Virus record (IMG/VR): IMGVR_UViG_2526164690_000039 | Reading direction: 5' to 3' (one strand) | DNA: 27,166 nt | Origin: a virus | Taxonomy: Duplodnaviria; Heunggongvirae; Uroviricota; Caudoviricetes | Part shown: in pieces, positions 18,001 through 21,000 of the stretch | How the letters are laid out: each line of letters opens with the position of its first letter | How positions within the stretch are numbered: position 1 is the stretch's first letter | Program-made: the position numbers

Positions 18001-21000
18001 TTCAGAACATAACTGATACACAAAAGCATTGCGTAATACATCCAGTGATCTGGAAGTATTTCGGGGTTCCTTATATCTACCCACTCTTTAATTGATGCTG
18101 GGGTGATTATTATCAAGGCAATTAAAATAATAAGCATATGAATTAACTGTTGTAGCGTAAGACCACGCAGGAAGAAACGTAATAGTTCCTGCCACCAGTT
18201 ACTCATCGGTGAATCTCCATCATTCTCTCTGTAGGGGTGAATAGAGTTTATCCGATTTCTCGCTGTAGGGGTACACGAGAACCACCGAGCCTGATGTGGT
18301 TAAAAGACAGGCATACGAATAAACACTGCACTGTGTATTCATTCCAACGAGTGAATACACGGAGCAATGTCGCTCGTAACTAAACAGGAGCCGACTTGTT
18401 CTGATTATTGGAAATCTTCTTTGCCCTCCAGTGTGAGGGCAATTTTTTTGACGGAGGATATATGAGTGAAGTAACAGATTTAGTTGTTATTGAAAAAGCA
18501 AATGCAATGACTGTAATTTAGTCTGCCGACCAGATTGAAGAAATTCTTCAAAAGGTTGAACGTGAAGTTATGTCCTTTGTGCCTGATATCACAACGGCAA
18601 AGGGCAGAAAGGAGATCGCTTATCTGGCGTATAAAGTTGCGCAGACGAAAACATATCTCGATGGTCTTGGCAAAGACCTTGTTGCTGAACTGAAGGAAAT
18701 TCCAAAGCTAATTGATGCTAACCGCAAGACAGTGCGCGATCGCCTTGATGAACTGAAAGCCAAGGCGCGCCAGCCTCTTACTGATTATGAGGAAGAACAG
18801 GCGCGGATTAAAGCCGAAGAAGAAGCTAAGGCAGCAGCTGAAGCTCTCGCAAAGCAAATTGAGTCTGACCATGAAATAGCGATTTTGATGGATCGCGAAT
18901 TTGACCGCCAAAGAGAAGAGGCAAGACTCAAAGCGGAGCAGGAAAAGCGAGAGCATGAAGAACGCTTAAAAAGAGAAGCTGAAGAGAAAGCCAGAGCTGA
19001 AGCCGAAGCAAAGGCAAAAGCCGAAATTGAAGCAGCAGCAAGGCGAGAAGCAGAAGCTAAGGCCGCAGAGGAACGTGCAGAGCGTGAACGCATTGAAGCC
19101 GAGCAACGAGCACAGCGCGAAGCAAAAGAGGCAGCAGAACGAGCTGAAAGAGAAAAGCATGCGGCAATTGAAGCAGAACGCCGTAAAGCACAGGAGGAGG
19201 CAGAACGAATCCTGCGCGAGGCTGAAGCAAAAGAGCAAGCCAGAATAGCAGAAGAAAAAAGAATCAAGGACGAAGAAGAGCGTAGAGCAAAGGATAAAGC
19301 TCACCGGAAAGAAGTAAATAACAAAATACTTGCTGACCTTATCAAGGTTGGCGCATCAGAAGATGTTGCTAAAAATATCATAACAGCCATCGTAAAAGGC
19401 GAATTATTCGCAACAAAAATAACCTACTAATAAAACCAACATAAGGAACCACCCATGATTTACGCAATCGCGGGAGGCGCTCGCATGGGTGCCTTCCAAT
19501 TAAATGAATCTTTACTTGAACGAATCACCCGTAAATTACGTGACGGATGGAAAAGAGTTGAGGTCTTATTATGCGCAATGAAATAGCCATCAATCACCAG
19601 ATGCTTCGTGCTGCACAGAACAAGGCAGTAATAGCCCGATTTATTGGTGATTCAAAAATGTGGCTTGAAGCAAATAAAGCGATGAAATCAGCTATCAACC
19701 TTCCGTGTTATCGCAGGAAATGAGTTTTACAGATAACTGGTCAGACGAAGAATTCATTCGTCAGATGAAAGAATTAATCGGTAACGAAGGAGATATTCAT
19801 GTCACTTGCAACCACAGTGAAGGAGAGCAAGTTACAGAGGCGCATGTACACGCAGAAAGCTCTCTGGTATCGCCATAATGGTGACCGCGAAGGAATGCGG
19901 GTATGCCTTAATTTGTCCCGAGTCGAAGTATTAAATCAGCGTTATTTCCTTGGGCCGTGTCCATTCTGAGAACAATCATATGAGCAAAGAATTTTACGCA
20001 AGACTGGCAGCTATTCAGGAGAATCTGAACGCGCCAAAGAATCAGTACAACTCATTCGGCAAATATAAATACAGAAGCTGCGAAGATATTCTTGAAGGCG
20101 TTAAGCCGTTACTGAATGGCCTGTTTTTATCAATCAGCGATGAAGTTGTGTTGATTGGTGATCGGTATTATGTGAAAGCCACGGCAACTATTACCGATGG
20201 CGAAAACAGTCATACGGCAACCGCTCTTGCACGAGAGGAAGAAAGCAAGAAAGGAATGGATTCTGCACAAGTTACGGGAGCTACAAGCTCTTATGCACGC
20301 AAGTATTGCCTCAATGGTTTATTCGGCATTGATGATGCGAAAGATGCAGATACCGACGAGCATAAACATCAGCAGAACGCAGCAGCAAAGCAATCAAAAC
20401 CATCACCTACACCTGAACAGGTTCTAAAAGCATTCACTGACGCAGCAATGCAGAAAAACACCGTAGAAGAGCTTAAACAGGCGTTCGCCAAAGCGTGGAA
20501 GATGCTCGAAGGCACACCGGAGCAGCACAAAGCGCAGGACGTTTACAACATCAGACGAGACGAATTAGAAGGAGCTGCTGCTTAATGGCACATTCGATTA
20601 CTGTAAGACTAAACAAGCCCGCAAGAGAGTTTCAGACCGGGGAAAATATCGGATTCAACATCCGTGCTGGCGTTCAGTATTACGATCGCCAGACAAAAAA
20701 GAAAGAATGGACAAACTACAGCGCCGTTGTATTTGCCAAGCCGGGAGCGCAAGCGGATTACTACCGTAGTGTTCTTGTTGAAGGTGGCATTGTGGAAATT
20801 ACCGGAGAAAACATCAGGGTTGATGTTTATCAGGGGCAAAATGGTCAATCAATCACTCTTGAATTACTGAATGCAAAGATTGGATTTGCAGCTTCAGGAA
20901 ATGGCCCGCAGCAGCAAAGTAGTAACCAGCAGAACACTCCTGTATACGACGATTCCATCCCATTCTGATTTAGAAAAATAAGGATTTAATTATGCCAGCG

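Follow-up and report, generated by a model that had tools for sequence, protein, structure and literature searches.

The window analysed here is a stretch of 27,166 nucleotides (nt) of viral DNA (IMG/VR record IMGVR_UViG_2526164690_000039), and its subject is a small gene, referred to below as the ssb-like gene, which directly follows erf and encodes a protein resembling SSB (single-stranded DNA-binding protein). Translation of the open reading frame (ORF) on the plus strand gave the product MAHSITVRLNK...SGNGPQQQSSNQQNTPVYDDSIPF, followed by a TGA stop, and so bore out the protein of 127 amino acids (aa) that an earlier reading of the sequence alone, the original prediction, had placed at 20585-20968. 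A longer alternative ORF with a GTG start at 20495 appeared on a mechanical ORF list; the start was set at 20585 because the homologues all begin MAHSIT or MxHxIT. The direct coupling to erf that had been claimed was also evident, in that the TAA stop of erf and the ATG of the ssb-like gene share an A (TAATG), while a strong Shine-Dalgarno sequence lies inside the 3' end of erf. The two features together indicated translational coupling of the ssb-like gene to erf.

The genes on this strand ran in the order cIII, kil, erf, ssb-like, abc2, Ea22-like, Lar-like and int, which makes this a lambdoid prophage's early-left operon, and the ssb-like gene is a member of the erf-ssb-abc2 recombination (Rec) module of a lambdoid prophage of the Shiga toxin 1a (Stx1a) type. 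The DNA from erf to abc2 was 100% identical in several Stx1a-converting phages and 97-98% identical in HK106, HK542, HK97, HK446 and others. On this sequence identity (97.5% across the HK97 erf-gp40-abc2 region) and on the same gene order between the annealase gene and abc2, the ssb-like gene is HK97 gene 40, whose product is gp40. The latter has been named SSB-1b in a study of lambdoid Rec modules (Zheng, Casjens, Smith et al., Genome Res 2025; PMC12315714), where its AlphaFold 3 fold was found to resemble bacterial SSBs and its identity to the ES18 SSB was at most 15%. The gene is thus far an ordinary component: phage SSBs that carry a tip like the host's and are encoded next to an annealase are well known, and the gp40 family is already labelled. 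What is modestly new here is the documentation of a conserved tip that is frameshifted away in the HK97 reference, the register of aromatic residues with E. coli SSB, and a portable C-terminal module found on Erf, Sak4 and RecT proteins.

Annotation of the gene was inconsistent. It is hypothetical in most GenBank records and 'ssb protein' in HF4s, and homologues are labelled SSB or "OB-fold protein" in the Edwardsiella phage GF-2 and in numerous Vibrio phages. Among complete RefSeq E. coli genomes the gene was present in 579 of 5426 (approximately 11%), and PGAP called it 'hypothetical protein' in all 12 of the 12 rows sampled.

Table 1. Positions in the window of the ssb-like gene, its parts and its neighbours
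Feature	Position	Strand	Remarks
ssb-like gene (HK97 gp40 / 'SSB-1b' type)	20585..20968	+	127 aa and stop; ORF and translation
OB-fold domain, predicted ssDNA-binding core, residues 1-103	20585..20893	+	AlphaFold2 (AF2) pLDDT 90-96; calculated pI 8.96
Low-complexity Q/N/S/P-rich linker, residues 104-120, predicted disordered	20894..20944	+	pLDDT <50 at 107-120 (AF2)
Acidic tip YDDSIPF, residues 121-127, host-SSB-type	20945..20965	+	sequence; protein ends PVYDDSIPF
Shine-Dalgarno sequence GAAGGAG	20568..20574	+	within erf 3' end, 10 nt 5' of the ssb-like ATG; sequence reading
erf (Erf-family single-strand annealing protein, 201 aa)	19980..20585	+	PF04404, E 2e-44; immediately upstream of the ssb-like gene
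Erf C-terminal module, ~55-60 aa, predicted three-helix bundle	20400..20582	+	AF2 pLDDT 91; candidate partner-docking domain
abc2 (anti-RecBCD protein 2)	20992..21285	+	PF11043, E 5.6e-63; phrog_656; downstream of the ssb-like gene
286-aa charged protein	18570-19430	+	phrog_1376 and phrog_21365
Pair of short ORFs that overlap (57 aa and 56 aa)	19705-19969	+	between kil and erf
Ead/Ea22-like protein	22011-22568	+	PF13935; 3' of the Rec module
Lar-like restriction-alleviation protein	23184-23486	+	PF14354; 3' of the Rec module
Integrase	24678-25748		downstream of the Rec module

Predicted fold, linker and C-terminal tip

The PHROG 44 (SSB) profile matched residues 2-127 of the protein with an expect value (E) of 2.7e-27 (97 bits), and the homologue from Edwardsiella phage GF-2 gave a weak match to PF00436 (E 0.0028, 18.1 bits; threshold 26). 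Searches of Pfam, NCBIfam and PDB sequences, whether run with the protein alone or with its family profile, returned nothing significant, the best PDB entry being 4dam, a small Streptomyces SSB (E 1.2), and a fold search was used for this reason. An AF2 model, built from a family alignment of 49 diverse homologues, had an overall predicted local distance difference test score (pLDDT) of 84.7 and placed a confident oligonucleotide-binding (OB) barrel over residues 1-103 (block pLDDT 82-96), with strands at residues 3-8, 14-18, 21-34 and 39-51, a helix at 55-63, and further strands at 69-74, 76-84, 87-95 and 98-103. The predicted model has the SSB-type OB fold, that is, a five-stranded barrel with the SSB-typical helix between strands 3 and 4, here residues 55-63 between the strands 39-51 and 69-74. 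When the model was compared with PDB by Foldseek, the top 50 matches were all SSB or PriB structures (E 2e-5 to 6e-4, probability 1.00, 13-19% identity), including SSBs of Coxiella, Klebsiella, E. coli, Mycobacterium and Staphylococcus and mitochondrial SSBs, and SSB ranked above PriB. The profile match, a model with a core pLDDT >90 and the fold search together support the phage SSB-like OB-fold protein of the original prediction, and we regard the 127-aa product, with reasonable confidence, as a divergent phage SSB-like OB-fold protein that can be named a Rec-module SSB.

The family profile was aligned with the E. coli SSB sequence using hhalign. The alignment, a weak one with a probability of 53%, paired Y32, W42, F50 and Y82 of the window protein with W40, W54, F60 and W88 of E. 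coli SSB, the DNA-stacking aromatics of that protein. Across the family W42 and F50 were invariant or nearly so and Y32/Y33 was conserved, so that aromatic residues occupy the stacking positions as far as an alignment of that probability can place them. The calculated isoelectric point (pI) was 8.96 for the OB core and 4.05 for the tail. Binding of single-stranded DNA (ssDNA) by the gp40-type protein is inferred, as are any oligomeric state and every protein-protein contact.

The core was followed, as in SSBs, by a tail predicted to be disordered (pLDDT <50) and an acidic tip, YDDSIPF. The linker had been described as Gln/Gly-rich, which did not hold: in the window protein it is rich in Gln, Asn, Ser and Pro and contains 2 Gly only, and the composition of the tail across the family was Q 26%, P 12% and G 9%. 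Among homologues the linker ranged from 0 to 116 aa and was hypervariable to the point of not being alignable. The claimed host-SSB-type ending PVYDDSIPF, on the other hand, was present as described. In all six frames of the window, which hold 342 stop-to-stop segments of 40 aa or more, the pattern [DE][DE]x[ILVP]P[FY] had a single occurrence, namely where the ssb-like ORF ends. Within the family a tip of the form [IPA]P[FY] preceded by acidic residues was found in 79 of the 102 homologues with a complete OB core, the variants including DDSIPF, DDDIPF, DDEPPF, NVDIPF and EEDIPF; the closest IMG/VR loci, which are near-identical to the window and serve to judge intactness of the tip rather than diversity of context, all ended in YDDSIPF (80/80). 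Retention of the tip while the linker is hypervariable indicates selection on the tip.

The ends of the remaining homologues were various. A marine and metagenomic subgroup (P0091-P0120) carried long poly-Q/P linkers and ended in QQPR, HQG or NNRG, lacking the IPF tip, or in DDDIPF extended by NQGGR or NHG, and a separate group of homologues ended in DDDWV. The gp40 of mEp234 (L094:1501-1695) was truncated, its first 48 aa being intact and followed by unrelated sequence and a stop, and abc2 was absent from this phage; the truncation and the missing abc2 suggest a deletion or a mosaic joint within the gene.

Gene neighbourhoods and the Erf C-terminal module

Erf lay directly upstream of the gp40-type gene, mostly with a stop/start overlap, in HK97, mEp213, GF-2, Vibrio phage 14E30.2, a Chimaeribacter prophage, locus L097 and two marine contigs. 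Elsewhere the upstream gene encoded a Sak4/AAA_24 recombinase (a Leminorella prophage) or a DNA_pol_B_exo2 exonuclease (L099 and L100), a Rad52-like gene stood two genes upstream in L098, and L089 had no recognisable recombinase upstream. The gp40-type protein is a Rec-module SSB that has been shuffled among annealase types, with Erf as the usual upstream partner gene, and this pattern agrees with the Rec-module mosaicism already published (PMC12315714). Bet was considered as an alternative partner in mEp213 and rejected, as the 'Bet' annotated beside the gp40-type gene of that phage is really an Erf (PF04404, E 5.6e-44). The neighbouring Erf of PhiR12_4 is likewise mislabelled 'Bet'.

In P22 the same slot between erf and abc2 is occupied by abc1, which is likewise start/stop-coupled to erf. 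DNA similarity between the window and P22 (L093) ended at 20456, within erf after codon ~159, and restarted at 20982, so that the exchanged block (20457-20981) comprised the last ~43 codons of erf and the entire next gene, ssb here and abc1 in P22. That gp40 might be a diverged Abc1 was rejected on an hhalign probability of 0.2% (E 0.31).

The window Erf was 75% identical to P22 Erf, the N-terminal domain being nearly identical and the C-terminal ~55 aa divergent. (A match of the Erf N-terminus to the Pfam family ExoX-like_C, at E 0.08, was treated as chance.) The Sak4/AAA_24 protein of Leminorella, a Sak4-type recombinase which itself precedes a gp40-type SSB, has a C-terminal extension that shared 52% identity (E 4e-14) with this C-terminal module. 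The module was searched for with a 62-aa query; a homologue search gave short fragments only and an exhaustive phmmer search gave 20 hits. These hits, together with Pfam scans, showed that various Erf subtypes and one fragment of the RecT family carry the module. It has the consensus LKxFT..A..L..W..L.G..Q.KA..VY.IR..EL and lies, in addition to the window, at L085:3810-3998, L095:111-551 and the 3' end of P22 erf (L093). With a hidden Markov model (HMM), the module was detected in the window, HK97, mEp213, mEp234, L004, L085, L088 and L097 on the recombinase encoded ahead of the gp40-type SSB. Strict co-occurrence was nevertheless rejected, each being found without the other: gp40-type SSBs also follow Erfs with other tails (L003, L090, L091 and L100), and the module occurs where no phage SSB follows, so that there is no obligate linkage between the two.

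A three-helix bundle of Red-beta has been reported to bind E. coli SSB (PMC8303780). The Erf C-terminal module is common, at 40-52% identity, to the structurally unrelated cores of Erf, Sak4/AAA_24 and RecT. We tentatively suggest that it might be a portable docking domain for an SSB-type tip, although on present evidence we would sooner expect this not to hold. Were the module to bind the phage YDDSIPF or the host DDDIPF tip, then the core of the recombinase, the docking module and the gp40-type SSB would amount to three plug-and-play parts of a recombination mediator, each shuffled independently of the others, and the module could be transplanted to improve the portability of recombineering. 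That Erf, Sak4 and RecT all carry it offers a modest lead on how annealases find SSB-coated DNA and on how that might be engineered.

Other features of the region were recorded. The two small ORFs between kil and erf had no Pfam match, their HK97 counterparts (gp42 and gp42.1) carry the RefSeq label 'recombinase', and the interval is occupied by an Arf gene (PF17585) in the related prophages L088 and L097. The 286-aa protein encoded further upstream has a long, highly charged centre rich in E, A, K and R (…EEEAKAAAEALAK…AEAEAKAKAEIEAAARREAEAK…); it matched only PHROGs of unknown function, and in mEp213 it is labelled 'TolA'. In L096 Erf is followed by a 157-aa charged protein rich in Lys and Glu.

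Proposed role and comparison with known systems

The original prediction had suggested that the protein could be the partner of Erf, or could compete with host SSB for its interactome; both suggestions are reasonable by analogy with the SSB and Sak4 of HK620 (PMC5928155). C-terminal tails of SSBs are regarded as critical for the species specificity of single-strand annealing proteins (SSAPs), and SSAP operons often include a phage SSB (PMC12054835). The account we favour, and hold to be probable, is that the gene encodes a recombination-module SSB which uses its tip to recruit the phage annealase, host SSB partners, or both. The ORF, the coupling to erf, the predicted fold, the conservation of the tip and the synteny on which it draws are computational results. 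The OB domain would cover ssDNA laid bare in the course of phage replication or by RecBCD that Abc2 has modified, and the flexible Q/N-rich linker would present YDDSIPF as a docking peptide in the manner of the bacterial SSB tip. The tip would then load Erf onto the ssDNA so coated, perhaps by way of the three-helix module at the Erf C-terminus. Engagement of host SSB-binding proteins is also conceivable because the tip is nearly identical to that of host SSB.

Several observations weigh against this account. As regards the SSB assignment itself, Pfam gave zero matches for the 127-aa protein at E up to 1, and TIGR00621 scored 13.6 bits (E 0.06), below its cutoff of 53.95, so that the protein lies outside the curated membership of PF00436 and TIGR00621. 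Foldseek template modelling scores (TM-scores) were modest, at 0.4-0.55, and hhalign, while colinear with E. coli SSB, reached a probability of 53% only. In that alignment the family-invariant Thr43 stands opposite His55 of E. coli SSB, a residue important for tetramer stability. As regards the tip and its partner, not every homologue adjacent to Erf ends in IPF, some being without the tip and others continuing beyond it. The marine copies L090:2501-2983 and L091:2501-2980 lie directly after an Erf with a different C-terminal tail, with RdgC nearby. Matches to the module HMM, moreover, extended to P22, L096 and L095, where no phage SSB follows. The HK97 reference copy (L001:3636-4025; NC_002167 23786-24175) contains one extra A, TCCAATCCC as opposed to TCCATCCC in the window (20945-20968), and through this 1-nt insertion ends ...DDSNPILI* instead of ...DDSIPF*; the frameshift is either a real mutation or a sequencing error. 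The copies beside Erf that lack or overrun the tip, together with the HK97 frameshift, imply that the tip is not strictly needed for the gene to be retained beside erf. Rec-module SSBs are, in addition, experimentally unstudied according to PMC12315714.

The promiscuous neighbours and the tip-less copies beside Erf make a general phage SSB the most serious rival. Such a protein would serve replication and protection, adding to the limiting supply of host SSB in theta and rolling-circle replication, with its tip plugging into the host interactome (chi, PriA, RecO and others), and adjacency to erf would reflect operon organisation only, there being no specific hand-off to Erf. The almost host-identical tip (YDDSIPF versus FDDDIPF) would suit this, as would the occurrence of the same SSB type behind Sak4, a Rad52-like gene, an exonuclease or no recombinase at all, and the persistence of tip-less homologues beside Erf. 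Against it, the gene consistently stands within Rec modules, where it immediately follows the annealase with a stop/start overlap, and lies outside the replication (O/P) module, while the HK620 precedent is of a specific, functional recombinase-SSB pair (PMC5928155). We think a purely general role unlikely.

A further alternative is that the protein acts mainly as a decoy in host takeover, titrating the tip-readers ExoI, RecQ, RecJ, RecO and Ung away from host SSB and so protecting phage recombination intermediates, in parallel with the hijacking of RecBCD by Abc2. A host-like tip carried on a much shorter linker, close to the anti-RecBCD gene abc2, and conserved while the linker drifts, would fit such a function. 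However, a basic OB core with aromatics kept at the aligned DNA-binding positions would be superfluous in a pure decoy, and no precedent was found in the cited literature, so that this role appears distinctly improbable. Least probable is an OB-fold protein other than an SSB, with a convergent tip, which might for instance serve the primosome as an adaptor in the manner of PriB or do the work that Abc1 does in P22. PriB structures were among the Foldseek matches, abc1 holds the same erf-coupled slot in P22 and canonical SSB profiles stayed below threshold; against this, Abc1 proved unrelated, SSB structures outranked PriB, and it is SSBs that characteristically combine an OB core, a disordered linker and an acidic IPF tip.

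The practical value of the recombination-module SSB assignment lies mainly in annotation, given that approximately one in nine complete E. coli genomes carries the gene, Stx-converting prophages being among its locations, and that Pfam and TIGRFAM do not detect it. The window gene also adds an Erf-associated case to the known pairs of SSAP and SSB tip.

Comparison with known systems places the protein as follows. It shares with P22 Abc1 the slot between erf and abc2 and the start/stop coupling to erf, but the two sequences are unrelated (hhalign probability 0.2%) and Abc1 has no acidic IPF tip. It resembles E. coli Ssb in its OB fold, aligned aromatics, disordered linker and acidic IPF tip (the E. 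coli protein ending FDDDIPF), but identity is only ~15-19%, the window protein falls below the Pfam and TIGRFAM thresholds, its linker is ~17 aa as against ~55 aa, Ser replaces the third Asp of the tip, and Thr stands at the His55 position. With the Sf6 and ES18 Rec-module SSBs ('SSB-1') it has in common that a phage SSB lies next to the annealase in a lambdoid Rec module (PMC12315714).

The SSB of HK620 (HkaK, 'SSB-2'; Hutinet et al. 2018) is a protein of 21.3 kDa with an NDYPPF tip and Sak4 as its partner (PMC5928155). Removal of its last six residues abolished Sak4 binding to SSB-coated ssDNA and lowered recombineering ten-fold (PMC5928155). Like the window protein, it is a phage SSB whose gene sits in a Rec module resembling that of P22, with the recombinase gene on one side and abc2 on the other, and NDYPPF resembles DDDIPF; it differs in being larger and in having the RecA-like Sak4 as partner where the window has Erf. 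HkaK is, moreover, no homologue of bacterial SSB, unlike gp40 with its SSB-like OB fold (PMC12315714). The closest counterpart is HK97 gp40 itself, of the same family and in the same erf-gp40-abc2 synteny, from which the window copy differs in keeping ...DDSIPF where the HK97 reference reads ...DDSNPILI, a tip-destroying frameshift that provides a natural control.

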